A stretch of 64,000 bases of DNA from Candidatus Cloacimonadota bacterium (GCA_963676615.1 OY781092.1:973745-1037744); one strand, 5' to 3'. Numbered from the stretch's first letter, positions 14,001 to 61,673 are shown. Notes: generated by a model from the letters alone, not told the origin. Numbers and translations: made by a program.

Positions 14001-14174
14001 AATAAAAATCCCTTTAAAAAAAATTAAATCAACCGTTTACCTTAAAGATGCAAAAAGCAAAAACTCACAAAATAAAACGCGATTATAAACTCAAATAAGA
14101 TTGTGGGCTGTCAACCAAAAATTCCAGAATTTCCACTTTACAACTGCAGGAGATTAGTTTTGTTTGCGATAATT

Positions 14175-14501
14175 ATGAAAAAAGCGTATTATTCTATCGG
14201 CGAGGTCTGCAACCTGTTGGAGTTGCCCGATTACACCGTCCGTTATTGGGAGAGCGAGTTCAAGCAGCTATCGCCCAGCAAGCTCTCTGGACGCAAACGG
14301 CAGTTCACCAAAAAAGATATCAAACTCTTGCAAGAGATAAAATATATGCTCCACACGCAAGGCTACACCATCAAAGGCGTGAGAAAAATTTTGAACAATC
14401 GCAACAAAAAAGAGGACATCAAACAGGAGTTCGACCGAGCAACTGTGAAAAAACAGATCCTCAAAGCAATCCAAGAGATTGAAAATATTATAGCTGAATA
14501 A
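14175..14501 (+). CDS. MerR-family transcriptional regulator
   Basis: It has a MerR HTH (YSIGEVCNLLELPDYTVRYWESEF) and a C-terminal coiled-coil. It lies 10 bp upstream of hisG. The start is chosen at the internal Met. Confidence 0.7.
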   Translation: MKKAYYSIGEVCNLLELPDYTVRYWESEFKQLSPSKLSGRKRQFTKKDIKLLQEIKYMLHTQGYTIKGVRKILNNRNKKEDIKQEFDRATVKKQILKAIQEIENIIAE

Positions 14502-14511
14502 AGGACACAAA

Positions 14512-15369
14512 ATGAAGAAATTAAACCTAGTTTTGCCCAAAGGAAGAATTTTTGATCAGGTAAAAGATCTGCTCAGCCAAGCTGGCGTCAAGCTCACCCT
14601 CAGCGGCAGAGGACTGCGCCCGGCAACGAACAACGAAGATTTAATCGTTAAGATAATGAAGCCGCGCAACATCGCCAATCTGCTGGCTTTGGGCAGGCAC
14701 GACATCGGCTTTAGCGGGGACGACTGGATTTTGGAATCTGGGGTAACCAACGAGCTGACCACAATTTTGCCTCTGGGATTCAACCCCGTGAATATCGTGG
14801 CAGCGATTCCCGACAATCTAACTCTAGAGGGGCTAAAAAAGCGAAAAATCGTTGTCGTTTCTGAATACGAAAAAATCGCCAAAAGTTGGCTCGACGACCA
14901 AGGTTTCGACTACGAATTACTGACGGTGCACGGCGCAACGGAGGTTTATCCGCCCGAGGACGCGGATATGATCATAGACAACACCTCGACGGGTAACACA
15001 CTGCGAGACAATAATTTAAAGATTGTTGCCACGCTTATGCAATCTTCGACAAATTTCGTTGCCACCAAAAGCGCGATGAACGATTCCTGGAAAAGCGAAA
15101 AAATTTTGGAGCTGAAAATGCTGTTTGAGGCTATCCTTTTGGGACGCAACAAATCGATGATCGAGATGAATATCCCCCTAGAAAAAAAGGAGATTATCGA
15201 AAAATTGCCAGCGCTGAAATCGCCAACCGTGATGCCTTTGGCTGGCAATGCTGGCTTTGCTGTAAAAATCACCATCGACACGCAAGAGGTCGCCTCGCTT
15301 CTACCAAAGCTGAAAAAAATGGGCGCTTGCGACATTTTGGAATACAATCTGAACAAGGTAATCTTATGA
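14512..15369 (+). CDS. hisG: ATP phosphoribosyltransferase, long form with a C-terminal regulatory domain
   Basis: It begins LNLVLPKGRIFDQ and has the P-loop-like DNTSTGNTL. At 285 aa it is the long form. Its stop overlaps the next gene in an ATGA overlap. Confidence 0.85.
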   Translation: MKKLNLVLPKGRIFDQVKDLLSQAGVKLTLSGRGLRPATNNEDLIVKIMKPRNIANLLALGRHDIGFSGDDWILESGVTNELTTILPLGFNPVNIVAAIPDNLTLEGLKKRKIVVVSEYEKIAKSWLDDQGFDYELLTVHGATEVYPPEDADMIIDNTSTGNTLRDNNLKIVATLMQSSTNFVATKSAMNDSWKSEKILELKMLFEAILLGRNKSMIEMNIPLEKKEIIEKLPALKSPTVMPLAGNAGFAVKITIDTQEVASLLPKLKKMGACDILEYNLNKVIL

Positions 15370-17024
15370 TTAAAACCAAGCCCAGCGTAGAAAATTTGGC
15401 GCCGTATCAAGGACCGCCAGCGGACAGAATCGAGAAAATCCGCCTAGATTTCAACGAAGTAAATTTGCCGCCATCACCAAAATTGAGCCAGTTAAAATTC
15501 GACCCGCTGCTCTCGGGCGTCTATCCGCAAGAGGACAAGCTCATCGAAATTTTGGCAAAACGGTTTGGCGTCGCACCAAATTCTTTGCTGATTTGCAACG
15601 GCTCAAACGAAGCTATCACCTTGATTTTTGAGGCGTTTATTCAAGAAGGCGATCAGGTGCTCATCCCATTTCCGACTTTTTCGGTCTACTATCTGTTGCT
15701 ACAAAGCAAAAACGCCAAAATCAACAAAATCGCTTACGACGAAAATTTGCGCTTCCCCAAAGAAAAATTTCTGGCAGCCGCCAAAAAAAATCCCAAGCTC
15801 ATCGTTTTGGTGAACCCCAACAATCCCACGGGCGATATGCTCTCAAAGGCAGAAGTCGAGCAAATTTTGCAAGCTGCACCCGACTCGCTGCTCGTGCTGG
15901 ACGAGGCTTACATCCACTTTGCGGAAACGGAGCTGTGGGACTTGACACTGAAATACGAAAATTTGGTCGTGCTCAGAACTTTTTCCAAAGCCTACGCTCT
16001 GGCAGGACACAGAATCGGTTTTGCCATCGCAAATCCTGCAACAATGTCGCTGCTCTACAAGGTTTCACTGCCGTTTCGCATCAATTATTTTTCGCTAAAA
16101 GCCGCCAAAATCGCCCTTGCCGACGAGGAGCATTTTCAATACATTTTATCCACCATCAAAGACGAAAAGCAAAAAATGGAGAAATTTTTCCACTCGCTAA
16201 AAATCGATTTTCTGCCTAGCCAAACCAACTTTCTTCTGGTCAAAACTGGCATATGGAGCAAAGCGATTTACCAAACTTTGGCAGAGCAAGGCGTTATGGT
16301 ACGGCATCAAAAAAGCGGTCCGCTCAAAAATTACATCCGCATCTCGATGGGCACGCCAAAGCAGAACGAAATTTTTCGGGACGCTTTCCAAAAATTGTGG
16401 GCAAATCGGCTTTTGGCGTTCGATATGGACGGCACGCTCATCGATGTCGAACAGTCATATGTCCAGTCGATTAAAGACACCGTCGAGCATTTTTCGGGGA
16501 AAGCGGTCTCGTCTGCGCAAATCGACGCTGTGCGGAAAATTGGCGGCTACAACAACGATTGGGACTTAACGGAGTATCTTTTGCTGCAAGAAAAAATCGA
16601 AGTTGAAAAAACCGAAATTATCGAAAAGTTTGAAAATTTTTATCGTGAAAACAAAAAAACGGAAAAGTGGCTTTTGCCCAGCGAAGATTTGGCGGCTTTG
16701 AGCCAAGAGATTCCGCTGGCGATTTTTTCGGGACGACCACGAAAAGATATCGCTTACGCTCTCGATTTTTTCCAGAAAAAAGAGTTTTTCGGCGAAATTG
16801 TCGGAATGGAAGACACAAAAGATAAGCCAAAGCCCGACGGTTATGGGCTGGAGTTACTTCGCCAAAAATGCAACGCAAAGTTGATTGTATATGTTGGCGA
16901 CACCGTGGACGATGTCAGCGCGGCGCTTTCCGCTGGCTGCGTTGCGGTCGGTTTGCCCCAAGATGAGCGGGCGGATTACTACCTAAAAAAAATTACCGAG
17001 ATAAAAAATTTGGTGTTAAAATGA
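15366..17024 (+). CDS. hisC: Histidinol-phosphate aminotransferase fused to a C-terminal HAD-family phosphatase domain
   Basis: The N-terminal roughly 350 aa are a class-II aminotransferase with the PLP lysine in TFSKAYALAGHRIGF. The C-terminus carries HAD motif I LLAFDMDGTLID and motif IV VGDTVDDVSAA. ATGA overlaps on both sides show translational coupling. Confidence 0.8.
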   Translation: MIKTKPSVENLAPYQGPPADRIEKIRLDFNEVNLPPSPKLSQLKFDPLLSGVYPQEDKLIEILAKRFGVAPNSLLICNGSNEAITLIFEAFIQEGDQVLIPFPTFSVYYLLLQSKNAKINKIAYDENLRFPKEKFLAAAKKNPKLIVLVNPNNPTGDMLSKAEVEQILQAAPDSLLVLDEAYIHFAETELWDLTLKYENLVVLRTFSKAYALAGHRIGFAIANPATMSLLYKVSLPFRINYFSLKAAKIALADEEHFQYILSTIKDEKQKMEKFFHSLKIDFLPSQTNFLLVKTGIWSKAIYQTLAEQGVMVRHQKSGPLKNYIRISMGTPKQNEIFRDAFQKLWANRLLAFDMDGTLIDVEQSYVQSIKDTVEHFSGKAVSSAQIDAVRKIGGYNNDWDLTEYLLLQEKIEVEKTEIIEKFENFYRENKKTEKWLLPSEDLAALSQEIPLAIFSGRPRKDIAYALDFFQKKEFFGEIVGMEDTKDKPKPDGYGLELLRQKCNAKLIVYVGDTVDDVSAALSAGCVAVGLPQDERADYYLKKITEIKNLVLK

Positions 17025-17611
17025 ACAGAATTGCGAAAATCGAACGAAATACCAGCGAGACGAAAATCAAAATCGAGCTAAACCTCGATGGCGAAGGCAA
17101 CTATCAAATCGACACAGGCGTCGGATTTTTCGACCATATGCTCGAAGGGCTCTGCAAGCACGGCTTGTTTGACCTGAAGCTGAAAGCAACGGGCGATTTG
17201 CATGTCGATCAGCATCACTTGGTGGAAGATGTCGGCATCGCTTTAGGGCAAGCTTTTGGCAAAGCTCTGGCGGACAAAAAAGGCATCGAACGCAGCGGCT
17301 ATTTCGTCTATCCGATGGACGAGGCGCTCGCCGTGGTGGCTGTGGATTTAGGCGGCAGAGCCTATTTGCAATACGACTGCAGATTTTCGCGGCAATTTTG
17401 CGGCGGTCTGGATTTGGACTTAATGCCCGATTTTTTCGCAGGGCTATCCCAAAATATTCCGGCAAATCTCGTGGTACGAATGCCATACGGTCGCAGCGAT
17501 CATCACAAATTAGAGGCGTGCTTCAAGGCTCTGGCGAAGGCTCTACGCTTTGCCTGCGCCTATCTGCCACGAGCAACCGACAAAATTCCCTCAACCAAAG
17601 GCAGCCTATGA
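17021..17611 (+). CDS. hisB: Imidazoleglycerol-phosphate dehydratase (monofunctional)
   Basis: IGPD motifs are present: RNTSETKIKIELNLDG, GFFDHML, HHLVEDVGIALGQA. At 196 aa there is no fused phosphatase domain. Confidence 0.9.
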   Translation: MNRIAKIERNTSETKIKIELNLDGEGNYQIDTGVGFFDHMLEGLCKHGLFDLKLKATGDLHVDQHHLVEDVGIALGQAFGKALADKKGIERSGYFVYPMDEALAVVAVDLGGRAYLQYDCRFSRQFCGGLDLDLMPDFFAGLSQNIPANLVVRMPYGRSDHHKLEACFKALAKALRFACAYLPRATDKIPSTKGSL

Positions 17612-18462
17612 AAACCTACCTCGAGTGCTTTCCCTGCTTCCTCAAACAAGCGTTACACATCGCCAAACTTTGCGGGCTGAGCCAAGCAAATCAAAAAAAA
17701 GTGATTGACCAAACTGGCGCCCTTTTTGCCCAAATCGACTTGAACGCTACCGCGCCGCAAATCGCCAGCATAATTCACGACAAGCTCAAAGATTTTTTGC
17801 AAAACGACGACCCTTACGCACAAATAAAAGAGCAAAATGTCGCCCAAGCGCTAAAACTTGTGCCTGCGCTTACCTCCAAACTGCAAGCCGCAAAAAATCC
17901 GCTGCACAGCGCCGCTCGCCTTGCAATCGCTGGAAATGTTATCGACCTTGGCGCACACCAAAAATTTAATCTCGAACAAGAACTGCAGAGCGTGCTTACC
18001 GCCGGCTTTGCCATCGACGACTTCGACGATTTCGCCCAAGACATCAAAAAAGCTAAAAAAATCGTCTATCTTGGCGACAACACCGCCGAAGGCATTTTCG
18101 ACAAAATATTCATCCAACAAATTGCAAAACCAACAATTTACACAACTCGCGAAATTCCCGTAATAAACGACATTACCACACAATGGGCAAAAAGAATCGG
18201 CATCGACACCGTAGCAAATGTCGTCAGTTCGGGAGCGAAAACGCCAGGAACTGTGCCCGAGCTGTGTTCACCGCAATTTCAAAAAACTCTGGCAGAGGCG
18301 GAAATCATCATCAGCAAAGGACAGGGCAACTACGAGGCGCTCTCGGACACAAATTTGCCAATCTACTTTTTCCTCAAAGCCAAATGTCAGGTCATCGCCG
18401 ACCACATCGGCGTTCCGCTGGGTTCGTATCTCCTAATAAAAAATCAGAGGAGGGCAAAATGA
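17608..18462 (+). CDS. DUF89 (ARMT1-like, damage-control phosphatase) family protein
   Basis: It begins MKTYLECFPCFLKQALHIAKL, a characteristic DUF89 N-terminus. It sits inside the his operon with ATGA overlaps at both ends. The track ORF starts earlier in the same frame. Confidence 0.65.
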   Translation: MKTYLECFPCFLKQALHIAKLCGLSQANQKKVIDQTGALFAQIDLNATAPQIASIIHDKLKDFLQNDDPYAQIKEQNVAQALKLVPALTSKLQAAKNPLHSAARLAIAGNVIDLGAHQKFNLEQELQSVLTAGFAIDDFDDFAQDIKKAKKIVYLGDNTAEGIFDKIFIQQIAKPTIYTTREIPVINDITTQWAKRIGIDTVANVVSSGAKTPGTVPELCSPQFQKTLAEAEIIISKGQGNYEALSDTNLPIYFFLKAKCQVIADHIGVPLGSYLLIKNQRRAK

Positions 18463-19058
18463 TAGCCATAATCGACTACGGAGCGGGAAATCTGCATTCC
18501 GTGCAAAACGCCTTGAGCCACCTGCATGCCGACCACATCATCGCATCAACTCCGCAGCAAATTCTTGCGGCAGACAAAGTAATTTTGCCCGGCGTCGGAC
18601 ACTTTGGACAAGCCAGCGGCAAGCTGGAAAACTCGGGCTGCTACGACACTCTGCTCGACTGGATACGCCAAGACAAGCCGTTTTTGGGAATCTGCGTCGG
18701 TTTGCAACTTTTAATGGAAGGCAGCACCGAAGCACCCTCTGCAAAAGGGTTCGGTTTCTTTGCGGGGAAATGCGAAAAATTTGTCGGCAAAAGGGTGCCA
18801 CAAATGGGCTGGAATCAGATTTCGTTCCAGCGCGAAGACCCAATTTTTCAAGAAATACCCGACCAAAGCAACTTCTACTTCGTCCACAGCTACTACCCAA
18901 AAGCGCAAAATCAAGCCGACATCCTCGCCAAATGTAGCTATTGCGACCAAGATTTCGGGGCAATTTTGCAAAAAGGCAATATCTATGGCACACAATTTCA
19001 CCCCGAAAAAAGCGGCAAAGCGGGGCTGCAACTTCTCAAAAATTGGATAAATCTGTAA
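18459..19058 (+). CDS. hisH: Imidazole glycerol phosphate synthase, glutamine amidotransferase subunit
   Basis: It begins MIAIIDYGAGNLHSVQNAL and has the catalytic Cys in GICVGLQLL plus a C-terminal HPEKS motif. A strong RBS (GAGGAGGG) is present. Confidence 0.9.
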   Translation: MIAIIDYGAGNLHSVQNALSHLHADHIIASTPQQILAADKVILPGVGHFGQASGKLENSGCYDTLLDWIRQDKPFLGICVGLQLLMEGSTEAPSAKGFGFFAGKCEKFVGKRVPQMGWNQISFQREDPIFQEIPDQSNFYFVHSYYPKAQNQADILAKCSYCDQDFGAILQKGNIYGTQFHPEKSGKAGLQLLKNWINL

Positions 19059-19069
19059 CCGCAAAAACT

Positions 19070-19642
19070 TTGCAAAAAGTGGTCTTGCCCGACAAAAAAC
19101 GGCACATTTTTCAGACCGCCGCAGGTCAAGCCATCTCCAGTGACGGCAACTTTTTGGTCGAAACAGTTTTGCAAAATCACAGCCAAAAAACGCTGAAAGC
19201 TTTGGATATAGGTTGCGGTTGCGGAATTTTGAGTTTTATGCTCAAGCTAGCTCGTCCAGATTGGCAAATCTCCGGAATCGACATTCAAAAAAATCTAATC
19301 CAACTCGCCAAAGAAAACGCTCAACTCTGCCAGCTAGACGCAGAGTTCGCTTGCGAAGATCTAAACTCGCACCGCGAAAAATACGACCTCATTATCTGCA
19401 ATCCGCCATTCTTCCCAAAAAATTCGGGAAAAATGCCCCAAGAAATCGGCAAGCAAATCGCCCGCTTCGAGCTTAAATGCACCCAACAACAAGTCATCGC
19501 CGCCGTTCAAAATTGCCTGCAGCCCCAAGGAAACGGCTACATCCTCTACCCTCTGGCTCGTTTGCAAACCGCAGAACTTCAGGCGAAAATCGTCGCCAAA
19601 AAGGGAAATGTTGGGGTGATAGCCATAACATTAAGAAGCTGA
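19070..19642 (+). CDS. SAM-dependent N6-adenine-type methyltransferase (TrmN6/YfiC-like small methyltransferase)
   Basis: It has the SAM motif LDIGCGCGIL and the NPPF motif in DLIICNPPFF. The start is uncertain: TTG at 19070 or GTG at 19079, with no in-frame ATG near the hisH stop. Confidence 0.55.
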   Translation: MQKVVLPDKKRHIFQTAAGQAISSDGNFLVETVLQNHSQKTLKALDIGCGCGILSFMLKLARPDWQISGIDIQKNLIQLAKENAQLCQLDAEFACEDLNSHREKYDLIICNPPFFPKNSGKMPQEIGKQIARFELKCTQQQVIAAVQNCLQPQGNGYILYPLARLQTAELQAKIVAKKGNVGVIAITLRS

Positions 19643-23909: not shown

Positions 23910-24428
23910 TTAACTTTCTGGGAACAAAATTTTGTCAAATTTAAATTGATAAATCGGATAATTCAGATATTTATCGACCTTGTCCATCGCGACCTTGCTC
24001 AGCAGCAGTAGCACAGACTCATCGCTGGGCATCGAGTTCCTGATTTTCAAAACTTTCCGAAACTGTTTATTCAAATTTTCGATCCAATTTGTGGTGTAAA
24101 TCAGCCGCTGAATTCTGTGGTCAAACTCCAAAAAAGTGAAATAATAAACGACATCGTCTCTGTTTAATAACTTCTTGGTAAATCGATACTTATCTCCCCA
24201 TTTTTTCGCAAAATTATCCAAATTTTTCAAAGCAATTTCTTTCGTATAGCGTTCTTGTCCGACGCAAAAAATTTCCTTCAAATCGTCGCTAATTTCGCTT
24301 TTATCACTATTCCTGACCTTAGCTAATAGACTTCTTTTAAAGTGAGTTACACACTTTTGAAATTTCGCATTTTTAAAAACTTTGCTCACCACATTTTCCA
24401 GCCCAACAAGGCCGTCAGCCACGACCAA
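23910..24428 (-). pseudogene. IS256-family transposase, C-terminal part (split ORF)
   Basis: It begins VVADGLVGLENVVSKVFKNAKFQKCVTHFKRS, which continues the conserved core (DGxxGL ... FPxAxxQRC-like). Together the two parts give about 386 aa. Confidence 0.7.
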
Positions 24429-24437
24429 TTTTGTCGT

Positions 24438-25079
24438 TTACAAGCCTCGCGATTTTAGGCGATTAAACAAGAATTCCCAGCCAGCAGCGCTCTCGGTCGG
24501 GATATTTTCGAGCGCCAAAATGTCCCGACTTTTGTCCTCTCGGACGCCGATAACCACGCAAAACGCCTCAGTTTCAACACTGTCGAGCCGCCTCAATTTG
24601 GAATGTATGGCGTCAATCATAATAATCGGATAGTTTTTTTCTAGCGGCCTATTTCGCCAATTTGTCAACAATTCTTTGAATTCTTGGCTGATATTGCTGA
24701 TGGTCGATTTTTTGTAATTCGTGCCAAAAACATTTGCGAAAACATTCTCTATGTCTCTGGTAGACAAGCCTTTAGCATACAGCTGAAACGCCAATTCTCG
24801 TACTTCTTGCTCCTGCTTTTTCAAAATTTCCAAGATAAATGGATAAAATTGACCGAATCTGTCGCGCGGAATTTTGAATTGAATTTTGCCGCTGAGAGAT
24901 GAAAAACACCTGCTGCGATAGCCGTTGCCTTTGTTGTTTGAGCTTTTGTTTTCCGCCATAAAAGCCTGTCTTTCCAGCTTCATAAGGCTGTTAAAAACGA
25001 ACTCGATCAATTTATTCGCGCCATAATCATTGACATTTTCGTCTAAAATTTTTTGTAGTTGACTTGCGTTAAATCGCAT
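24438..25079 (-). pseudogene. IS256-family transposase, N-terminal part (split ORF)
   Basis: The sequence MRFNASQLQKIL ... AFQLYAKGLSTRDIENV ... IIMIDAIHSKLR matches the Transposase_mut pattern. The ORF terminates about 10 nt before the next ORF, which continues the same protein. Confidence 0.7.
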
Positions 25080-25184
25080 AAGAATCTCCTTTTTTGTTCT
25101 TTTTTTTATAAAAATTGGAGATTCTTTTTTTGTGTCTAGTTTTTTTTGCTGCAGACACACTTTTTTGGACAGTGCCCACATTTT

Positions 25185-25374: not shown

Positions 25375-27123
25375 TTACTCTTGTTTGCCCGATAGTTTGT
25401 TGCGTTTTTTGTAGTGCGTATGCAAATATTGGTGAGATTTGTGCGAGAGCGGCTCGCCCAAAAACTCTTTGTAAATTTTGGTAATCATCGGGTTGGTGTG
25501 CGAAGCCCTAAACTGGCAATCTTTGTCCTCTTTGTAGAGCGATTCGCCGCGTCTGGCACGGTCGGCAATGCTAGAGCCATACGGCTGTCCGCCGCCACCA
25601 ACGCATCCGCCAGGGCACGCCATTATCTCGATAAAGTGGTAAGATTTTTTACCCGACTGCACATCTTCGAGCAGCTTTTTGGCGTTGCCAAGCCCGTGCA
25701 CCACAGCCACATTCACCGTCAAAGTCGTCGAACTGTCTTTCAGCGGAATGTCCAAACTCGCTTCCTTAATTCCTTGCATTCCGCGCACAGCTTCCACCTC
25801 CATCTTGCCCAGCTCTTTGCCCGATAAAATTGCATAAGCTGTGCGAATTGCCGCTTCCATCACTCCACCTGTCGCACCAAAAATCGTCCCCGCACCTGTG
25901 TATTGTCCCATAAGCTGGTCGGCTTCCTCTTCTGGCAAATTTTTGAAATCCAAATTTGCCGCCTTTATCATCTTTACAAACTCCCGCACAGTCAGCACAC
26001 AATCGACATCCTGATAGCCAGAAGCGTTCATCTCGGGGCGCTTTGCCTCAAATTTTTTGGCTGTGCAAGGCATAATCGACACGCTGACAATATCTTTGGG
26101 GTCGATTTTCTCTTGCTCGGCAAAATAGGTCTTCACCATCGCGCCGAACATCTGTTGCGGCGATTTGCAAGTAGAAACATTATCGAGCAAATCTGGGAAA
26201 TAGGTCTCCACAAACTTCACCCAGCCAGGCGAACAAGAGGTGATAAGCGGTAAAGTTCCGCCCTCTTTTATCCGCTGAATAAGCTCCGAGCCCTCTTCCA
26301 TTATCGTCAAATCCGCAGCAAAGTTCGTATCGAAAACGCGGTCAAATCCCAGACGACGCAAAGCGGCATACATTTTGCCAACCGTCACTTTCGTCGGATC
26401 CATTCCAAACTCTTCGCCAAGAGCAGCCCGAACCGACGGCGCCTCTTGCACCACCACAATTTTGCTCGGGTCGAACAAAGCGTCTTGCACCTGCTCAATC
26501 TCACTCTTTTCCTTGAGCGCGCCCACAGGACAATACACCGTGCACTGCCCGCAGTTCACGCAAGGACTATCGGCAAGGCTCGTATCAAACGCCGCAGTCA
26601 CCTTGCTGGCAAAGCCACGACCGCTCACACAAAGAGCGTGAACTTTTTGAATATCGTTACACACCGTGATGCAACGCCCGCAATGGATGCACTTGTTGGT
26701 ATCTTTCACAATCGAAGGCCCCAAATTATCCACCTTCGCCCGCTCGAAAATCGGCTCGTAATCCGACTCGGGAATGTCCAAATAGTTGATCAGCTCCTGC
26801 AACTCGCATTTGCCGTTTTGGTCGCAAGTCGGGCATTTCACATCGTGTTCCAACAAAATCAAAGACAAGAGCTCTTTGCGAAGTTTGCGAATTTCTGGCG
26901 AATCGGTAACTATCGACATTCCGTCTGCCACAGGCGTAACACACGCCCGCTTTAGCGGACCCACACCCTCTATCTTCACCACACAAACTCCACAATTTCC
27001 AGTAGGAGTCAAATCTTTGTGATAACACAAACTCGGGATGTAATGTCCGCTCTGCTCAGCCGCTTCCATAATGGTCTGACCAGCCTTAGCCTCTACCGTT
27101 TTTCCGTTTATCGTTATTTGCAT
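25375..27123 (-). CDS. hydA: [FeFe]-hydrogenase catalytic subunit (M3-type, CpI/HydA-like)
   Basis: It has an N-terminal plant-type [2Fe-2S] domain and [4Fe-4S] motifs (CIHCGRCITVC). The H-cluster motifs are L1 SCSPGWV, L2 MPCTAKKFE and L3 EIMACPGGCVGGGGQP. Confidence 0.9.
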   Translation of the reverse strand: MQITINGKTVEAKAGQTIMEAAEQSGHYIPSLCYHKDLTPTGNCGVCVVKIEGVGPLKRACVTPVADGMSIVTDSPEIRKLRKELLSLILLEHDVKCPTCDQNGKCELQELINYLDIPESDYEPIFERAKVDNLGPSIVKDTNKCIHCGRCITVCNDIQKVHALCVSGRGFASKVTAAFDTSLADSPCVNCGQCTVYCPVGALKEKSEIEQVQDALFDPSKIVVVQEAPSVRAALGEEFGMDPTKVTVGKMYAALRRLGFDRVFDTNFAADLTIMEEGSELIQRIKEGGTLPLITSCSPGWVKFVETYFPDLLDNVSTCKSPQQMFGAMVKTYFAEQEKIDPKDIVSVSIMPCTAKKFEAKRPEMNASGYQDVDCVLTVREFVKMIKAANLDFKNLPEEEADQLMGQYTGAGTIFGATGGVMEAAIRTAYAILSGKELGKMEVEAVRGMQGIKEASLDIPLKDSSTTLTVNVAVVHGLGNAKKLLEDVQSGKKSYHFIEIMACPGGCVGGGGQPYGSSIADRARRGESLYKEDKDCQFRASHTNPMITKIYKEFLGEPLSHKSHQYLHTHYKKRNKLSGKQE

Positions 27124-27127
27124 TTTC

Positions 27128-28684
27128 TTACTCTCCTATAAACTTTTCAAATTCATCTCCAAAATATTTGACCATACTGCCAATGGGCATCGCAGGAGAT
27201 TGTCCCAGTGCGCAAAAAGAGGTTTTTTGCATCAAGCTGGAAACTTCGTCCAACCTTTTCACATCAGCGCGGCAGCCTTCTCCAGCCAATATTTTGTCTA
27301 TCAAACCAACCAAAACTTTGCAACCAATCCGACAAGAGCTACATTTTCCACAAGATTCGTGCAAAAAGAAGTTCAAAATAGAACGCAAAACTTTGAGCAT
27401 ATTTGCTTTTTCGCTCATAATCAAAATCGCCCCAGAGCCAAGCACCGCAGACTCTTTGGACAGATTTTCAAAATCGAGCTTAATCTGCAGAAGCTCCTTT
27501 GGCAAAAACATTCCCGCAGCTCCGCCAACCAAAGCGGCTTTGAACTTCTTGTCCTCTTTGAGTCCGCCGCCGTATTTAAAGATAATCTCCGACAAAGTCG
27601 TGCCCATAGGCACCTCTATCAAGCCGGGACTGTTCACATCGCCCAAAATCGTGTAAACCTTTGTTCCGCAAGAGCCAGGCGTGCCAATCTCGGCAAACTT
27701 CGCTCCGCCATTTTCCACAATCTCTGGCAAATTGGAGAGCGTCTCGACATTGTTAACCACCGTCGGTTTGCCCCAAAGTCCGCTCACGCCAGGATAAGGA
27801 GGCTTCGAGCGAGGATTACCTCTGCCGCCCTCCAGCGAATTCAAAAGCGCCGTCTCCTCACCGCAAACATAAGCACCAGCGCCAACTTTGACCATCACAT
27901 CAAAATCGAAACCGCTACCCAAAATATCTTTGCCCAAAAGCCCATACTCTCTGGCTTGCGCAATCGCTTTTTTGAGCCGATTAATGCAAAGCTTATACTC
28001 GCCACGAATGTAGATAAATCCAGTGTCCGCGCCAGCCACAAAACCCGCTATCATCATTCCCTCGAGCAGCTTGTGCGGGTCGCCTTCCATAATCAGCCGA
28101 TCCTTAAAAGTTCCCGCTTCGCCCTCGTCGGCGTTCACGACGATATACTTGTGCTTTTCGTCCAATTTGGCAGTCAGCTCCAGCTTCATTCCCGTGGGAA
28201 ATCCAGCACCGCCACGACCACGCAAATTGGAAGTTTTAATCTCTCGCAAAACCTCGTCTCTGCCCAGCTGCAAAGCTTTTCCCAAAGCTTGATAACCGTC
28301 CACGGCGATATACTCGTCGATAGATTCTGGGTCAATTTTGCCCGAATTTTTAAGCACAATTCGGTGTGAAAAAGCAAAATCAACCTCTTGTTTGGCTGGC
28401 TGACTCAAACTTTTCACAGGTCGCCCTTTAAGGAAATGTTCCAAAACAATCTGCGGAACATCCTCCACGGTGATATTGTGATACAAAAGATTATCGGGAT
28501 AAACCAGAAAATGCACGCCTTTGGACACATAGCCCAGCGTCCCTGTCTCCAGCACACCGACCTCTTTCTCCAAACCGTTTTTCGCCAGCTCGTCGCGCAT
28601 AGCCTGAATGACCGCCTTGACGCCCTTGTCCAGAGTGTGATCGTCAACTACAAAAAGAATGTGAGTTCTATAAAACATTTTCAC
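27128..28684 (-). CDS. NuoF-like flavoprotein subunit with a Cys-less N-terminal thioredoxin-like domain
   Basis: It has the FMN/NADH-site motif GRGGAGFPTGMK and the N3 [4Fe-4S] motif ESCGKCSSCRIGC. The N-terminal roughly 90 aa align with thioredoxin-like [2Fe-2S] domains but lack the Cys ligands. There is no C-terminal ferredoxin domain. Confidence 0.8.
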   Translation of the reverse strand: MKMFYRTHILFVVDDHTLDKGVKAVIQAMRDELAKNGLEKEVGVLETGTLGYVSKGVHFLVYPDNLLYHNITVEDVPQIVLEHFLKGRPVKSLSQPAKQEVDFAFSHRIVLKNSGKIDPESIDEYIAVDGYQALGKALQLGRDEVLREIKTSNLRGRGGAGFPTGMKLELTAKLDEKHKYIVVNADEGEAGTFKDRLIMEGDPHKLLEGMMIAGFVAGADTGFIYIRGEYKLCINRLKKAIAQAREYGLLGKDILGSGFDFDVMVKVGAGAYVCGEETALLNSLEGGRGNPRSKPPYPGVSGLWGKPTVVNNVETLSNLPEIVENGGAKFAEIGTPGSCGTKVYTILGDVNSPGLIEVPMGTTLSEIIFKYGGGLKEDKKFKAALVGGAAGMFLPKELLQIKLDFENLSKESAVLGSGAILIMSEKANMLKVLRSILNFFLHESCGKCSSCRIGCKVLVGLIDKILAGEGCRADVKRLDEVSSLMQKTSFCALGQSPAMPIGSMVKYFGDEFEKFIGE

Positions 28685-29108
28685 CTCCCTGCAGATTTTT
28701 GAGCAACCCCTCCAGCTTCTCTTGGGTCATATTTCCGTAAACTTTATCGTTGACCAGCACCACAGGAGCGTTACCACACACGCCCAGACACTGACAAGCT
28801 TCCAAAGTCACATCGTTCATTTTTTTGGTCTTTTTTTTCAGATAATCAAGCAAATTGTCCGAGCCCTGCACAACGCAATGAGGCGACTGACACACCTTGA
28901 TTACAAACTTTCCTCTGGATTCAAGCGCAAACATCGAATAAAAACTCGCCACAGAATACACCTGATTATAAGGCATCTTCAAATAATGTGCCACCTCTTT
29001 CAGAGCATCAACGCTCAGATGCTGCGTAGGGCTAGCGTCCTGAGCTATATGCAAAATCTGCAAAATATTCTCAGGCTTTGGTGGATATTTCGTAAAATCT
29101 GTCAACAC
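28668..29108 (-). CDS. NuoE-like [2Fe-2S] subunit (HydC/HndA-like)
   Basis: It has the thioredoxin-like [2Fe-2S] Cys pattern: CQSPHCVVQG, then CLGVCGNAP. Confidence 0.8.
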   Translation of the reverse strand: MLTDFTKYPPKPENILQILHIAQDASPTQHLSVDALKEVAHYLKMPYNQVYSVASFYSMFALESRGKFVIKVCQSPHCVVQGSDNLLDYLKKKTKKMNDVTLEACQCLGVCGNAPVVLVNDKVYGNMTQEKLEGLLKNLQGGENVL

Positions 29109-29139
29109 AACCTCCTTTTAGTTTCCACAACTTTCAACA

Positions 29140-30965
29140 TTACAATTCTTCACTAACTTCGCCTTGCCCAGGCAACTTTTTGATCGCTCCCACAGGGCAA
29201 ACCTCCATACAATTTCCGCACTTAACACAATCCGCCTGCGAAATCTCAAACTTCTCCTGGCGACTGCCGTGAATGCTGCTAACTGGGCACTTCTTCGCGC
29301 AAAGCGAGCAGCCCACACACTTGTCCTTATTTATCTGAAAATGCAAAAGATCAGGACAAACAAGCGCAGAACATTTTTTCTCATTTATATGCTCTTCATA
29401 CTCGTTTCGGAAATGTTTAATCGTTGACAACACTGGATTTGGCGCGGTCTGTCCCAAGCCGCACAAAGCGGTTTTCTTGATCACATTGCCCATTCGCTCC
29501 AGCTCTTGCAAATCTTCCATTGTCCCCTTTCCAGAAGTGATTTTTTCCAAAATATTGTGCAAATGCCGAAGTCCAATACGACACGGCGAACACTTGCCGC
29601 ACGACTCTTCCATCGTAAATTCCAAGAAAAATTTGGCAACATTCACCATACATTTGCTATCGTTCATCACAATCACGCCGCCAGAGCCCATCATCGCGCC
29701 CTCGGCAATCAGCGAATCGTAATCGATAGGCACATTCCAATGCTCTTTGGTCAGACAGCCGCCAGAAGGTCCGCCCAGCTGCACAGCCTTAAACTCGCCG
29801 CTGCTCATACCTCCGCCAACTTTATCGATAAGCTCGCCAATCGTCACGCCCATCGGCACTTCCACAAGCCCCGTATTTTTCACATCGCCCGTCAGCGCAA
29901 AAACTTTCGTGCCTTTGCTTTTTTCGGTGCCCATCGCCGCAAACCACTTGCCACCTTTTTCGATAATCGGCGGCACATTCGCCAAAGTCTCTACATTATT
30001 GATGTTCGTCGGCTTGTCCCAAAGTCCGCTAATAGCAGGAAACGGCGGTTTCGACCTCGGATGCCCTCTTCTTCCTTGAATCGACGAAATCAGAGCGGTC
30101 TCCTCTCCGCAAACAAAAGCGCCCGCTCCTGTGCGCACCTCCATATCAAAGCTAAAGCCACTGCCCAAAATATTCTCGCCCAGAAGCCCATACTCACGAG
30201 CCTTCTCAATCGCTAGCTTCACCCGCTCAATCGCCAGGGGATACTCCGCGCGGATATAAAAAAAGCCCTTCGTCGCTCCAATGGCATACGCGGCTATCAT
30301 CATCCCCTCCAGCACCTTGTGCGGATCGCCCTCCAAAACAGACCGATCCATAAAAGCGCCTGGGTCTCCCTCATCTCCGTTACAAATCAAATACTTAACG
30401 CCGTCATCGCTCTTGGCTTTTCGGGCAAATGTCCACTTCAAAAAAGTCGGGAAACCGCCACCGCCACGACCACGCAAGCCAGAAATCTCAATCTCCTTAA
30501 TCACATCCTCGGGGCTCATCGACTCCAGCACCTTCGCCAGCGAGCCGTAGCCGTCAACAGCCACATACTCTTCCAGCGACTCCGGATCGATATAACCGCA
30601 ATACTCCAGCGCAACTTCGTCTGACTCTTGTAAAACGGCACATCCTCCACATTCCGCACAACATTCTCGGCAGCCGAGCCGTCCCTCATCAAAAGCCGCT
30701 CAACCACGCGCCCTTTAACAAAATGCTCCTCGACAACCTCTTTCATATCCTCAGGTTTGAGCTGCTTATAAAAAACGCCCTCGGGATAAATCAGCATCAA
30801 AGGTCCAAAATCGCAAGGTCCCATACAGCCAGTCTCGATGATGTTAACCTCGCTCTCAATCCCAAACTCCCGCACCTGTTTTTGCAGCTCTTGCTTTATC
30901 TTTTTGGCTCCAGCAGAAACACAACCCGAGCCAAAACACAGCAAAACATCGATTCTCTTTAACAT
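29140..30965 (-). CDS. HydB-like NuoF subunit (N-terminal thioredoxin-like [2Fe-2S], NuoF core, C-terminal 2x[4Fe-4S]), interrupted by an apparent frameshift near 30620
   Basis: The track splits it into two ORFs. ORF 30516..30965 is a [2Fe-2S] thioredoxin-like domain (CFGSGC ... CMGPCDFGP). ORF 29140..30564 is the NuoF core (GRGGGGFPT ... SCGKCSPCRIG) plus CVGCSLCAKKCP ... CVKCGNCMEVCP. The NuoF reading frame continues upstream of 30564 without a stop, homologous to the paralogue, but in a different frame from the upstream ORF. The 30564 start of the track ORF is a GTG codon within this continuous frame. Confidence 0.65.
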
Positions 30966-30976
30966 CCTAACCTTCT

Positions 30977-31330
30977 CTAGATTAAAAATTCGCTAATAAC
31001 ATTGCCGTTAACAATATGCTCGCTCACCACTCTTTTCGCCTTCTCGGCGCTCATCTGACAATAAGTCACGCTCTTGCCATCCTTCTGCATCACATCCACC
31101 ACAGGCTCCATACTCGACGCCCCTTTCTCTCCGCTCTGGGTAACGACGACGCCCGAAATATCTCGTTTGGAAATCTCATCCAAAAACGCCCGCATCACCT
31201 CTCGTGCGCCCATAGCAATTCCCGAAGTCCCCATTCCAACGACAATCTTGTATTTGTAGTCCGAATTTCGCAAGTTCATCTTTTTTTGAACTTCTTCCTT
31301 TAACTTTTTCAAATCAGCTAACGATTTCAT
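30977..31330 (-). CDS. Small thioredoxin-like ferredoxin-fold protein lacking the [2Fe-2S] cysteine ligands
   Basis: KIVVGMGTSGIAMGAREV ... VTQSGEKGASSMEPVV aligns with the Cys-containing CFGSGCVSAGAKKI ... ETGCMGPCDFGPLM domain of the adjacent gene. The Cys residues are replaced by Met, Thr, Gly or Ser. Confidence 0.5.
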   Translation of the reverse strand: MKSLADLKKLKEEVQKKMNLRNSDYKYKIVVGMGTSGIAMGAREVMRAFLDEISKRDISGVVVTQSGEKGASSMEPVVDVMQKDGKSVTYCQMSAEKAKRVVSEHIVNGNVISEFLI

Positions 31331-31872
31331 CTATCCTCCAATTTTCCAATCTGCTGGCAAAGAATCTCTTCCATAAAATTTCTTATCTCTGGCTGATCCA
31401 AAGGCACGCCATCTAGCTCCTTCTTCACCAGCCGAGTATCAAAACAATCTTTTTCTCCATTCACACTGCTACGCAAAACAAAATCAACTTTTGGATGCGC
31501 CACAATGCAGGTAACCATCGTCAAGGCGACATCGCCAAGCGGCAAAGCGTCGATGCTGGAAACCACAAAACTCGCCTTCAAAATAGTGCCTTTGCCCAGC
31601 TCGGACTGCAAATCAAAACTACCGCCCGACAAAGTGGCACTCTGGGCAAACAGCGGAATGCCCAAACCGACCTTCTTTTTGCGAAACGCCTTGCTCGTAT
31701 AAAAAGGGTCAACCGCCGCCTTCAGCGTCTGCTCGTCCATCCCTTTGCCATTATCCTCCACGCTCAAACTCAAAACATCCTCTTTGCGCGAAAAACAACA
31801 CTCAATCAAAGTAGCACCAGCACTCACCGAATTTTGGAGAATATCTAAAAGGTGTAAAGATATATCTTCCAT
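31327..31872 (-). CDS. GHKL/HATPase_c-type ATP-binding protein (anti-sigma-factor / serine-kinase-like)
   Basis: It has the N-box/G1 motif SVEDNGKGMDE and G2 GLGIPLFAQSA. At 181 aa it has no His-kinase dimerisation domain. Confidence 0.7.
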   Translation of the reverse strand: MEDISLHLLDILQNSVSAGATLIECCFSRKEDVLSLSVEDNGKGMDEQTLKAAVDPFYTSKAFRKKKVGLGIPLFAQSATLSGGSFDLQSELGKGTILKASFVVSSIDALPLGDVALTMVTCIVAHPKVDFVLRSSVNGEKDCFDTRLVKKELDGVPLDQPEIRNFMEEILCQQIGKLEDR

Positions 31873-31905
31873 AAATTTGCGACTCCCTTATCTGCTCACC
31901 AAAAA

Positions 31906-32382
31906 CTAATACTTACTCAAAATCTCTTTAATCTGCCCTTTAGAAGCAATTTTACCATAAGTATCTTCGCCGATAACCACCACTGGCGCAAGCGAACACG
32001 CACCCACGCAGCGCACCGACGACAGCGAGAACTTGCCATCCTGAGTCGTTTGCCCAAGGCTCACGCCAAGCTCCTGCTCAAACATCTTAATCACATTCGC
32101 AGCGCCCTTCACATAACACGCAGTTCCCGTGCAAATATTGATAACGACCTCGCCGCGCGGCTTCATCGAAAAGAAATTATAAAAAGTCACCACGCCGTAG
32201 ATTTTGTTCACAGGCAAATCCATCTGCTCGGCAACAAACGCCTGCACCTCTTTCGGCAAATAGCCAAACAACCTTTGCGCCTCACGCAAAACCTCGATCA
32301 AAGGGTCTCTCAGACCTTTTTTCTCTTGGATAATCTCCTTCAGCTCCGCATAAAGTTTATTCTCACACTTCTCCACATTCAC
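31906..32382 (-). CDS. NuoE-like [2Fe-2S] subunit (HydC/HoxE-like)
   Basis: Its Cys motifs are CTGTACYVKG and CVGACSLAPV. Confidence 0.8.
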   Translation of the reverse strand: MNVEKCENKLYAELKEIIQEKKGLRDPLIEVLREAQRLFGYLPKEVQAFVAEQMDLPVNKIYGVVTFYNFFSMKPRGEVVINICTGTACYVKGAANVIKMFEQELGVSLGQTTQDGKFSLSSVRCVGACSLAPVVVIGEDTYGKIASKGQIKEILSKY

Positions 32383-32389
32383 CCCCTAC

Positions 32390-33103
32390 TTAAATCGTTT
32401 TTGTCTCAAACTCATTTTTTTGTAAAGCTATTTTTAAACTTTCAAAATTCAGCTCGTCCAGACTATACTCCGTATATCTTTTCCCAAAATCTTTTCGATA
32501 ATGAGCGTCGGAATTTCGCACCAGCGGCAACCCGTATTTTTCCCATGGCGCAAAATCTCCCACAACCTCCAGCGCATCAAAATCCACATCCTGCGGCAAA
32601 AATCCCAGCTGCGACTTTGTGCTAAAGCTATCGGCGTCCACATGCGAGGCGACCAAAAAGCCGCCATACTGCGCAACTTTGGCAGAAGTCGTCTGCAAAT
32701 CCCAGCTCACCGAATTCAGCAAAAGCTTGCCCTCAAACCCAAGCACCATCTCGTTTTCGTCGATAAGCACCTGATCGCCAAAAAAACCTTTGCGATTTTG
32801 AATGTCAGGCAGCGCCCGATACAGCTCCGCATCAAAAGCCGCCGCAGTCTTGCAGTCGGGAAAATACGCCAAAAGGTGCACCTCCAAACTGGTTTGAATC
32901 TCCACGCCGTAAATAAAATGGATGCCAAATTTTTGGGCAATACTCGCATAAGCCAAAGAGTTCGCCAGACTATTATGCTCCGTGATAGAGAGCATCCCAA
33001 AGCCCAAATCTCTGGCTTTTTCAAACAAAAGCGAGGGCGACATCGAATAATCGCCACACGGCGACAAAACAGAATGCAAATGCAAATCGGCCTTGCAAAC
33101 CAT
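32390..33103 (-). CDS. PHP-domain (polymerase/histidinol-phosphatase-like) metal-dependent phosphoesterase
   Basis: It begins ADLHLHSVLSPCGD and has SITEHNSL, the PHP His-rich motifs. Confidence 0.7.
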   Translation of the reverse strand: MVCKADLHLHSVLSPCGDYSMSPSLLFEKARDLGFGMLSITEHNSLANSLAYASIAQKFGIHFIYGVEIQTSLEVHLLAYFPDCKTAAAFDAELYRALPDIQNRKGFFGDQVLIDENEMVLGFEGKLLLNSVSWDLQTTSAKVAQYGGFLVASHVDADSFSTKSQLGFLPQDVDFDALEVVGDFAPWEKYGLPLVRNSDAHYRKDFGKRYTEYSLDELNFESLKIALQKNEFETKTI

Positions 33104-34723
33104 CTATTGCACCGCCACCAACTTATACAAAATCCCCGAAATCTGAAAAGAGTTATAAGGACTGCTCACAAGCACAATCCCCTCTTCGTTTGCCTTCTCA
33201 ATCACCTCTGGCGTCGGCATCTTATTCTTGGCAAAAATTATCGCATCAATCTCCAAGAGCGACGCCACAGCAATCGAATTTTGATGCTGCATAATCGTCA
33301 CCCACACTTGGCTATCGCCAGCCGAAGCCATCACATCCGAAAGCAAATCGCCCGCATAAACGCTGCTAACTCTCACGCTCGACAAATCTTTCTCCTTCGT
33401 CAAAAGTTTGCCGCCAATATACTCAATCAACTTCGCCAAAGACATCTCTTTTTTCTCCTGCAAATTAAAAACACAATCCGAAAACTTCGCCTTTCCACTC
33501 ACAATCTCCTTCGCCAAAACCTCGCAAGTCGGACACCCGCAAATCCCGCAATTTTTACCCGGCAAAAGCTTTTTAATGTCCTCATACTTTTTCATTTTGG
33601 CGATTTTTTCTTTAATCGACAAATTATCCACCTCGCGCGGCACAGGCGTAATCTCATTTTTTATCTCGAACTCTTTGTTTTTGAACAACTTATAAAAAAG
33701 CTCTTTGTCGATTTTTTCGAACTTCACATCCGAAGAAGCGATACGATTTGCCGCAATAAACGGATTTTCCACATTCAAATCTCCGCCGACACAACCGTTG
33801 GTGCAACTGCGCAGCACCACATAATCGTAATAATCCAGCTGACCGCCCTCGATTTTGGACAAAATATCTTTCGCACCCTTAAAACCGCTAACCGCCAAAG
33901 TCTTAAAATTGCTCTCCTTCACCTGATTGCCCTCGGAAATATAAATCCCCCAATTCTCGTGATTTATAACGCCACCCGAGTTTTGCACATCCTTTTTCTC
34001 GTCCTGCTTCTGATTATAACAAATATTCATAATCCGATTGTAAACATCGCGCATCGCCAAAGCGCCGTCCTGAAAAGATTTATCTTGCCCAACAGGATTT
34101 TTGAAAGCGGTAATTTGCGACGAACACGGAGCCACCGAAAAAATTCCAATCTCGTCTGGCTTGAACCCTTTTTTTTCTGCCAAATAGTGCCGATAGTAGG
34201 CGCTCAAAATCGCCACAGAAGACTCCAGCGGCACAATATGCTCCAGCAGCGACGGGTACTTAACCCTTATCAGCCGCACAATCGCAGGACAATTCGACGA
34301 AATCAAAGGGCGAATTTTGGCATCGTTCAACTTTTGCGCAAAAATCGGCGCCATCACTCCAGTAATCATATTTTCATCGATCACCTTGTCGAAACCCAGC
34401 TGCAAAAGGGCGTCCGTCGCCACCGCATAATCGATTTTGGGCGGAAGCTGCCCGATAAAAACATTCGACAAAAGCGCCACACGATATTTAAACCTAGAAT
34501 CGTGCAAGAGCTCATCGAAATCGTCGTAAACGCTTTTGATGGCTCCCACAGGGCAAATTTTGATGCACTGTCCGCAGCTGATGCACTTGTGCTGATACAG
34601 CTCGACCTTGCCGTCGCGGAGCCTGATGGCAGACACTGGGCAAACCCGAATACACCTCGTGCAACCGATGCACTTCTCCTTATCCTCCTGCACCGAGCCG
34701 CTAAAATTCACAATATTTTCCAT
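33104..34723 (-). CDS. Sensory [FeFe]-hydrogenase-like protein (HydS/HfsB-type) with a C-terminal DRTGG-like domain
   Basis: It has an N-terminal 2x[4Fe-4S] (CIGCTRCIRVCP, CISCGQCIKICP). The H-cluster-like motifs are degenerate: SSNCPAIV (L1 with one Cys), APCSSQ (L2) and CTNGCVGG (L3). An extra CGICGCPTC motif is present. The C-terminal roughly 110 aa (AGDLLSDVMA ... VLVSSP) resemble the adjacent DRTGG protein. Confidence 0.7.
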   Translation of the reverse strand: MENIVNFSGSVQEDKEKCIGCTRCIRVCPVSAIRLRDGKVELYQHKCISCGQCIKICPVGAIKSVYDDFDELLHDSRFKYRVALLSNVFIGQLPPKIDYAVATDALLQLGFDKVIDENMITGVMAPIFAQKLNDAKIRPLISSNCPAIVRLIRVKYPSLLEHIVPLESSVAILSAYYRHYLAEKKGFKPDEIGIFSVAPCSSQITAFKNPVGQDKSFQDGALAMRDVYNRIMNICYNQKQDEKKDVQNSGGVINHENWGIYISEGNQVKESNFKTLAVSGFKGAKDILSKIEGGQLDYYDYVVLRSCTNGCVGGDLNVENPFIAANRIASSDVKFEKIDKELFYKLFKNKEFEIKNEITPVPREVDNLSIKEKIAKMKKYEDIKKLLPGKNCGICGCPTCEVLAKEIVSGKAKFSDCVFNLQEKKEMSLAKLIEYIGGKLLTKEKDLSSVRVSSVYAGDLLSDVMASAGDSQVWVTIMQHQNSIAVASLLEIDAIIFAKNKMPTPEVIEKANEEGIVLVSSPYNSFQISGILYKLVAVQ

Positions 34724-50366: not shown

Positions 50367-51272
50367 TGCAATCCTCCTGCTTTTCCAAACAAAATTTCTT
50401 CACATTAAAACTTTCGTCTCTTCATTTCTGTCAAGAGTTGTTTTGGCGCTACAAGAGAATTTCTCCCAAAAGCGTTACTTTTATTCAGCATTTTTTTATT
50501 GGTCTTGACACAAATAGAGAAATTTATCGAATTGGGAAAAGGTTAGAAAAGGGAATAAATGGACAAAATGTTGGATATAACACCAAATTGGAAGGCTAAA
50601 CGATATGTGGAGTTTGGTTAGTTGTGATAAAACATTTAAGGAGACTGACATAACTATGAATGGATTCCAAAGACCTGCACCAAAAACGAGAGATTCAATA
50701 AAAAATTTTTGCAAATCAATAGATTGTGAAGTTGGGGCACAAACAATTAATAGCATAATAGAATAATCAGACCTAATTTAGTGATTTTTGTGTCAAAATT
50801 TTCTTGGGACAAATTAAGGTGCAAAATTCCAAAATCAGAATTAAAGGTGAAATATGACTTTGTTTGTCATCCAGGAACAGGCGGTCTTTATTGGCATAAT
50901 AAGAATTATAATCACGGTGTGAAAAAATTTAAATCATTATATAGAAGAGAAAATAATAAAGCCCTCAAATAACATTTTGTATAAGTAATGGCAAGCAATG
51001 TGGTAAATATTAAGGCTTGTAGCCCGATCAAACTACGTAGCGGTTTAATAGGTTTGCTCTCCGAAATGCCAAACATTTCATATACTCACCGTTAGGCATA
51101 AGCTAAAAAAAACAGCGAATATAAAATATAAACTAAGAATTATTAAAAAAATCAATGCACAAACACACATTTAGTTTTGCCGACCAGAAAACCAAACCCT
51201 GAAAAACCCAAAGAGCTATTTTTTAGCCAGCGCACGAAAAATAATTATAAATTTGTAATTAAAGAGTTTAAA

Positions 51273-53465: not shown

Positions 53466-53476
53466 ACAGTATTTAT

Positions 53477-61669: not shown

Positions 61670-61673
<4 letters not shown>
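60741..61673 (-). CDS. hflC: Protease modulator HflC (SPFH/band-7)
   Basis: It has an N-terminal TM helix and an SPFH domain. It is paired with hflK. Confidence 0.8.

Follow-up and report, generated by a model that had tools for sequence, protein, structure and literature searches.

The his Operon and Its DUF89 Gene

In a 64,000-nt stretch of the genome of a Candidatus Cloacimonadota bacterium (GCA_963676615.1 OY781092.1:973745-1037744), referred to here as the window, a gene of the DUF89/ARMT1-like family lies within an operon of histidine biosynthesis (his) genes, which has the order merR-hisG-hisC~HAD-hisB-DUF89-hisH-methyltransferase (Table 1). The DUF89 open reading frame (ORF) runs on the plus strand from ATG 17608 to TGA 18460-18462 and encodes a protein of 284 amino acids that matches Pfam family PF01937 with 216.2 bits against a cutoff of 25 (E=7.8e-64), the match covering residues 4-273 and profile positions 2-309 of 311. 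We take ATG 17608, and not the upstream TTG 17398, to be the true start because the N-terminus, MKTYLECFPCF, lines up with residue 1 of all homologues. An earlier note, made from the sequence of the window, had placed a DUF89-family gene between hisB and hisH with ATGA start-stop overlaps on both sides, and this description is borne out by the PF01937 match, by the hisB and hisH models, and by the sequence of the two junctions (hisB/DUF89 at 17608-17611 and DUF89/hisH at 18459-18462).

The hisG/hisC and hisC/hisB junctions are likewise ATGA overlaps, and four-base overlaps also occur at further same-strand gene pairs in the window (e.g., at 11906-11909, 54862-54865, and 61670-61673). Therefore, these overlaps mark operon packing in a compact genome and nothing particular to DUF89. 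The window has a GC content of 43%, and both the GC content of the DUF89 gene and that of its third codon positions (GC3) are in line with those of the neighboring genes, so that there is no sign of recent transfer.

The HisC of this operon bears a C-terminal HAD-IA domain, which the earlier note had overlooked. In this fusion, the histidinol-phosphate aminotransferase occupies approximately residues 1-345, and a TIGR01548-like HAD-IA hydrolase approximately residues 350-552. HisB is an imidazoleglycerol-phosphate dehydratase (IGPD) only, without a phosphatase domain.

Table 1. Genes of the his operon and other features of the window, with the matches that identify them.
Feature	Position	Strand	Matches and remarks
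merR regulator gene	14160..14501	+	PF13411, 67.6 bits; weak HspR-like match; directly upstream of hisG
hisG, long-form ATP phosphoribosyltransferase	14512..15369	+	PF01634 and PF08029; TIGR00070, 134 bits; first his gene
hisC~HAD fusion, 552 aa	15366..17024	+	TIGR01141 (hisC), 293 bits, above cutoff; HAD_2, 77 bits
hisB, monofunctional imidazoleglycerol-phosphate dehydratase	17021..17611	+	PF00475, 200 bits; NF002111, 254 bits (cutoff 231)
DUF89, subfamily I	17608..18462	+	PF01937; PH1575 (2G8L); AF2 model
hisH, glutaminase subunit of imidazoleglycerol-phosphate (IGP) synthase	18459..19058	+	TIGR01855, 224 bits (cutoff 105); start preceded by GGAGG
S-adenosylmethionine (SAM) methyltransferase, small-domain, PrmC/TrmN6/RsmC type	19043..19642	+	PF05175 (MTS), 65 bits; last operon gene; start codon uncertain
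Two adjoining ORFs	23910..25181	-	Transposase_mut (IS256 family)
[FeFe]-hydrogenase/NuoE-NuoF-like cluster	25375..34723		Includes the PHP-domain gene
PHP-domain gene	32390..33103	-	HisJ-type models below cutoffs
ORF of 784 aa	35577..37931	-	Leucine-rich repeats (LRR) and RibF
HerA-like helicase, NurA nuclease, and partial DNA methylase match	51177..55989	+	DUF87; N6/N4 DNA methylase

Conservation of the Arrangement and Origin of the Linkage

The full operon order recurs in all six close relatives (four other genomes of ~1.56-1.59 Mb and short contigs), in which the DUF89 protein is 65-77% identical to that of the window. The nearest species representatives are metagenome-assembled genomes labeled Candidatus Cloacimonadales, with chromosomes of 1.56 Mb, and a circular 1,570,370-bp long-read metagenome contig carries proteins identical to those of the window. 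The same order is also present on a distant Joint Genome Institute (JGI) metagenome contig, L089 (L-numbers denote comparison loci or contigs), where the downstream genes differ; identity to the window is 72% for HisB, 66% for HisG, 58% for HisH, 46% for HisC~HAD, and 44% for DUF89. Relative to the lineage, the insertion of DUF89 is thus old, and it has been retained. The earlier note had called the place of DUF89 in the his operon fixed and had proposed looking for it in the operons of related taxa; DUF89 occupies that place in every close relative and in L089, and its fixed position is a feature of this lineage only.

None of 78 other DUF89 loci, which come from many phyla, include other Cloacimonadota, and encode proteins of 40-48% identity, has hisB, hisG, or hisH within 10 kb. 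Conversely, DUF89 was found within 6 kb of none of 80 other metagenome hisB loci among the matches listed, in which HisB is at most 56% identical to that of the window, i.e., these are unrelated his loci and not near relatives. In a neighbor-joining tree, the window clade groups with L089 and with one ArsP_2-linked Marinimicrobia sequence; an exclusive group of his-linked DUF89s received support in only 6 of 200 neighbor-joining bootstraps, which does not amount to showing two independent origins. As judged from these sequences, a single relocation event would fit the linkage between DUF89 and the his genes.

In the nearest outgroups (47-48% identity), DUF89 belongs to a conserved ferredoxin-ArsP_2 permease-DUF89 arrangement, and another Cloacimonadota DUF89 (45% identity, L018) overlaps an ArsP_2 gene and lies among genes for NifX-like proteins and MinD/4Fe-4S ATPases. 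Across the 78 loci, the biggest sequence clusters of recurrent neighbors resemble MinD-like Fe-S ATPases (19), metallo-beta-lactamase-fold proteins (14), and NifX-like proteins (11), along with CGGC-type and radical-SAM-like proteins (14 each). Pfam matches on L018 back the MinD/Fer4, NifX-like, metallo-beta-lactamase, and ArsP_2 groups only, and the remaining labels were read from representative sequences. Neither the window nor the loci of its clade carry an ArsP_2 gene. We infer that DUF89 moved, in the ancestor of the small-genome Cloacimonadales lineage, from ferredoxin/ArsP_2/Fe-S/NifX-like surroundings to the slot between hisB and hisH, where it would have been inherited ever since.

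As a separate observation, the subfamily I DUF89s of anaerobes recur near ferredoxin and ArsP_2 permease genes and near those of MinD-like Fe-S ATPases and NifX-like, CGGC, radical-SAM, and metallo-beta-lactamase-fold proteins (L006/L011, L176-L178, and L018).

The DUF89 Protein: Family, Fold, and Active Site

The DUF89 motifs are present in the window protein as C7xxC10, G109-N110-x-x-D113 (the lid, with the sequence G109NVID113), D157-N158-T-A-E161, N187-D188, and K237-G-Q-G-N241-Y-E243. A model computed by AlphaFold2 (AF2) from 30 homologues reached a predicted local distance difference test score (pLDDT) of 89.2 and a predicted template modeling score (pTM) of 0.89, and a Foldseek search with it returned template modeling (TM) scores of 0.89 to 2G8L and 0.84 to 2FFJ. 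These two subfamily I structures are the best PDB matches of the protein, which also has the traits of that subfamily: it is a stand-alone, single-domain protein of ~280 amino acids, with no RTxK motif and no PanK fusion. The NCBIfam equivalog models for damage-control phosphatases were missed (NF040824/NF041594, 183.7 bits vs. 440 and 138.2 vs. 500). Going by these scores, DUF89 is a member of the family and not an equivalog or close ortholog of the archaeal reference proteins.

Overall, the protein appears to be an ordinary, catalytically intact subfamily I enzyme, for which metal-dependent phosphatase activity is predicted. The roles of its active-site residues and the aspartyl-phosphate intermediate are taken from the structures of Duf8901 (PMC9062747). 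Judging from homology, Asp157, Asn158, and Asp188 would hold a divalent metal (Mn, Co, or Ni), and Asp157 would attack the phosphomonoester to give an aspartyl-phosphate intermediate. The phosphate would be bound by Lys237 and Asn241, with the Gly109-Asn110-x-x-Asp113 lid closing over the site. The same paper (PMC9062747, citing Huang et al., 2016) presents the DUF89 family as phosphatases of damage control that differ in their substrates. Cys7, Cys10, Cys220, and Cys260 are conserved in at least 97% of 83 DUF89 sequences; with the recurrent gene neighbors described above, this hints at a metal- or redox-linked role of subfamily I that goes beyond "sugar-phosphate damage control."

Within the clade, identity is 66-77% for DUF89 and for HisC~HAD and 81-92% for HisB. 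DUF89 evolves faster than HisB and HisG, and the genes that change most rapidly in the operon include those of DUF89, HisC~HAD, MerR, and the methyltransferase; in addition, the clade sits on a long branch. Such a rate could point to a decaying or non-catalytic remnant, kept since its loss would disturb the translational coupling between hisB and hisH. However, the reading frame is intact in seven of seven genomes, the fold is predicted with confidence, and HisC~HAD evolves equally fast. Moreover, the window protein keeps each of the 40 positions with at least 97% conservation in 83 aligned family members, every catalytic residue included. We consider it extremely improbable that DUF89 is such a remnant, and the conservation of its sequence points to clear purifying selection.

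In the window clade, substitutions are fixed at 13-15 sites where at least 85% of the 78 other subfamily I sequences agree. One of them, DNAGE to DNTAE, lies right after the catalytic Asp-Asn. L089 has only three of the derived substitutions, at positions 85, 159, and 160, and the remaining ones are confined to the fast-evolving small-genome clade. The possibility of a his-specific active-site change (DNAGE to DNTAE/DNSSE) was considered and rejected, as the variant, in the form DN[ST]AE, is also found in ArsP_2-linked outgroups (P0008, P0009, P0013, and others). In this set of sequences, the Gly-to-Ala/Ser change evidently marks a phylogenetic subgroup and not the his context.

The Histidinol-Phosphate Phosphatase Step

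The HAD superfamily has repeatedly given rise to histidinol-phosphate phosphatases (HolPases), and Nitrosopumilus has a hydrolase gene between hisC and hisB (PMC10804674). For roughly one in three histidine producers, no enzyme is assigned to the step (PMC10804674, PMC7311316). For the HAD domain of the window HisC, TIGR01548 is the best model, although the match remains below the cutoff of 140 (113 bits with the full protein and 98 bits with the isolated domain). HAD motifs I-IV (DxD, S/T-G-R, K, and GDxxDD) do not vary among 15 fusion proteins, that of the window included, and neither do several cap residues. A Tyr-x-x-x-Ile pattern 12 residues past motif I resembles the nmHisN fingerprint.

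The HisC~HAD fusion is widespread, being present in Woesearchaeota/Nanoarchaeia (DPANN), Planctomycetota, and Terriglobales, and triple fusions (HisG~HisC~HAD and HisC~HAD~IGPD) also occur. On the Woesearchaeota contigs L091 and L092, and also in L175, the operon reads hisG-hisC~HAD-hisB-hisH-hisA-hisF~IE-hisD; it covers all steps, with the HAD domain as the sole phosphatase and no DUF89. Given that its motifs are intact and that these complete his operons have no other phosphatase and no DUF89, the HAD domain of HisC is most likely the HolPase of the pathway, in which case DUF89 would not be needed for that step.

These findings weaken the proposal of the earlier note that DUF89 is a second candidate for the dephosphorylation of histidinol phosphate. 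For DUF89 to be a real or redundant second HolPase, the HAD domain on HisC would have to do something else or share the step. This explanation would account for a hisB without a phosphatase domain and for the position of the DUF89 gene after hisC and hisB in the operon, and it agrees with the independent recruitment of HolPases from several superfamilies (PMC10804674, PMC7311316). By contrast, the HAD domain is intact in the window and is the only phosphatase in the otherwise complete operons described above. DUF89 itself has no homology to the HolPase families (HAD HisB-N/paHisN/nmHisN, PHP HisJ/K, and IMPase HisN) and matches DUF89 models only (Pfam, NCBIfam, and PDB). In the literature searched, no paper links DUF89 to histidine biosynthesis, and none reports DUF89 action on histidinol phosphate. 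Overall, a HolPase function of DUF89 seems very unlikely.

Two further candidate explanations were rejected. Decay of the HAD domain in the DUF89-bearing lineage, with replacement by DUF89, is at odds with the invariance of motifs I-IV and of the conserved cap residues. The PHP-domain protein encoded inside the [FeFe]-hydrogenase/NuoE-NuoF-like cluster, tried as an alternative HolPase, scored 19-22 bits with HisJ-type models, against cutoffs of 117-133.

The HisC~HAD fusion is the more useful by-product of this analysis, as it points to a TIGR01548-like HAD as the HolPase in Cloacimonadota, DPANN archaea, Planctomycetota, and others. On the strength of its motifs and gene context, it is a strong candidate for the "missing" HolPase in these groups.

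his Genes in Mixed Operons

hisD, hisA, hisF, and hisIE were not found within the 64-kb window, so the operon is only a partial his operon. The hisF of the same genome lies ~270 kb from it (L179 10001-13482), closely packed with genes for a DAHP-synthase-family protein, Hsp33, and a class IV aminotransferase. The his pathway is retained yet dispersed in this genome, and his genes share operons with unrelated genes. Since the his genes are scattered in mixed operons, co-location carries less weight.

The methyltransferase is a second non-his gene kept in the operon and has no evident tie to histidine. All of its NCBIfam matches are below cutoffs (the best being PrmC, TrmN6, and RsmC), and it ends the operon in both sub-lineages (L001, L003, and L089), with an NPPY motif in the L089 ortholog (5230-5826). 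One relative (L003) has an insertion of a transposase gene and additional methyltransferase genes downstream of the operon. The merR gene is kept upstream of hisG in L001, L003, and L007 of the close clade and in L089, and it is absent from the his loci L090, L173, L091, and L175; the MerR-family protein may be a (lineage-specific) regulator of the his operon.

At two loci of a related lineage, in which HisC~HAD is 41% identical to that of the window, a pentapeptide-repeat gene (279 aa) stands between hisB and a hisF gene (L173 11439-12278 and L174 6132-6971), in the place of DUF89 and hisH of the window operon. There was no Rfam match near the operon, and the promoter- and terminator-like matches at the operon were not clearly above shuffled expectation.

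Role of DUF89 in the Operon

With moderate confidence, we interpret the gene as encoding a general subfamily I DUF89 phosphatase that, in one Cloacimonadales lineage, came by relocation to lie in the his operon and is carried there as a co-expressed passenger, the HolPase being the HAD domain of HisC. We favor this explanation because the linkage is found in one lineage, because HisC bears an intact HAD domain, and because mixed operons are usual here. Judging from gene packing, DUF89 is apparently co-transcribed with hisG-hisC~HAD-hisB and hisH. The ATGA overlaps would permit translational coupling, and the level of DUF89 would then track those of the his enzymes. Most likely, the protein keeps a general phosphometabolite-hydrolyzing role, as a passenger in a mixed operon.

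Several points weigh against this explanation. ORFs of unassigned role in his operons have often proved to be his enzymes, e.g., Nmar_1556 (PMC10804674). The DUF89 gene lies mid-operon, with four-base overlaps on both sides, and the arrangement outlasted divergence to 44% identity in DUF89 and 46% in HisC~HAD (L089); such persistence is steadier than expected for a neutral passenger. In addition, the 13-15 substitutions fixed in the clade could reflect a changed specificity.

DUF89 might instead be an accessory enzyme dedicated to the his pathway that removes a harmful or surplus phosphorylated compound at high flux. Candidates would be imidazoleglycerol phosphate, imidazole acetol phosphate, excess histidinol phosphate, breakdown products of phosphoribosyl pyrophosphate (PRPP) or phosphoribulosyl-formimino-AICAR phosphate (PRFAR), and 5-aminoimidazole-4-carboxamide ribonucleotide (AICAR, or ZMP), the by-product of the HisH/HisF step. 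Such a role would fit a gene that lies mid-operon, is coupled by ATGA overlaps to both hisB and hisH, and is retained in two divergent sub-lineages with unlike flanks, but the linkage has a single evolutionary origin, and DUF89 is absent both from the other his and DUF89 loci sampled and from complete his operons of the HisC~HAD type. The clade's fixed substitutions at otherwise conserved sites would also be in keeping with a dedicated enzyme; of these, only those at positions 85, 159, and 160 are common with L089, and the change at 159/160 is present in ArsP_2-linked outgroups as well. The account of the family as phosphatases of damage control that differ in their substrates (PMC9062747, citing Huang et al., 2016) suits an accessory role, against which stands the routine mixing of unrelated genes in the operons of this genome. 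On balance, we regard a dedicated accessory enzyme as possible but unlikely.

The earlier note took the fixed place of DUF89 as suggestive of a role in the his pathway. The placement is indeed stable, but it is so in one lineage, with the linkage seen at 0 of 78 DUF89 loci and 0 of 80 hisB loci elsewhere, and in a genome with mixed operons. As for the suggestion that DUF89 cleans up a reactive his-pathway intermediate, or for a back-up function in the pathway, nothing was found that specifically supports such a role.

Subfamily I DUF89 is very widespread in bacteria and archaea (thousands of homologues), and no physiological substrate is assigned to it in the literature searched. A lasting association with one pathway could supply a lead that can be tested, and the locus would be reasonable for a substrate screen. 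We think it improbable that DUF89 was recruited as a dedicated histidine helper, be it as a second HolPase or in disposing of a his phosphoester or AICAR, and locked to hisB and hisH by coupling; if true, a bacterial subfamily I DUF89 would for the first time have a physiological substrate and a pathway assigned to it. Our results suggest that the lead on DUF89 function offered by the his operon is weak. The gene is a member of a known family in an unusual, lineage-restricted context.

Other Features of the Window

Three further features of the window were noted (Table 1). A HerA-like helicase (DUF87), a NurA nuclease, and a partial N6/N4 DNA methylase match lie in a row, the last two overlapping by four bases, and these genes may form a defense or DNA-processing module. 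An ORF of 784 aa has leucine-rich repeats in its N-terminal part and a FAD synthetase/riboflavin kinase (RibF) in its C-terminal part, and is either an unusual fusion or an ORF over-extended from a GTG. The two adjoining ORFs that match Transposase_mut suggest a split transposase, which is probably inactivated.

Comparison with Known Systems

PH1575 of Pyrococcus horikoshii (2G8L) belongs to the same family as the window DUF89 and has the same size and fold, with a match of E=8e-43 over residues 1-280 and, in superposition with the window model, a TM score of 0.89 at 31% identity. The CxxC, GNxxD, DN, ND, and KGxGN[YF]E motifs are common to PH1575, AF1104 of Archaeoglobus fulgidus (2FFJ), and the window protein. 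Unlike most subfamily I members, which have DN[AS]GE, the window DUF89 has DNTAE, and it lies inside a his operon, a setting that no other subfamily I locus sampled outside its lineage has.

The eukaryotic DUF89 proteins include Saccharomyces cerevisiae YMR027W, Schizosaccharomyces pombe Duf89/Duf8901, and human ARMT1 in subfamily III, and Arabidopsis At2g17340 in subfamily II. The window protein has in common with them the Asp nucleophile, the metal-binding Asn and Asp, the Lys, and the lid Asp, the mechanism having been shown for Duf8901 (PMC9062747). However, they are far more distant (E=2.4e-4 for At2g17340; TM score of 0.49 for 5F13), and in comparison the window protein is without RTxK and ~160 residues shorter. 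The substrates of the eukaryotic proteins (fructose-1-phosphate, pyrophosphate, and p-nitrophenyl phosphate) are not transferable to the window DUF89.

The known HolPases are HisB-N and paHisN/nmHisN of the HAD type, HisJ/HisK of the PHP type, and the IMPase-like HisN. DUF89 would catalyze the same reaction as these enzymes were the idea of the earlier note right, but it is unrelated to them in sequence and fold. Like the gene of nmHisN (Nmar_1556; PMC10804674), that of DUF89 sits among his genes as an additional hydrolase gene. The protein of the operon that resembles the known HolPases, however, is the HAD domain of HisC and not DUF89.

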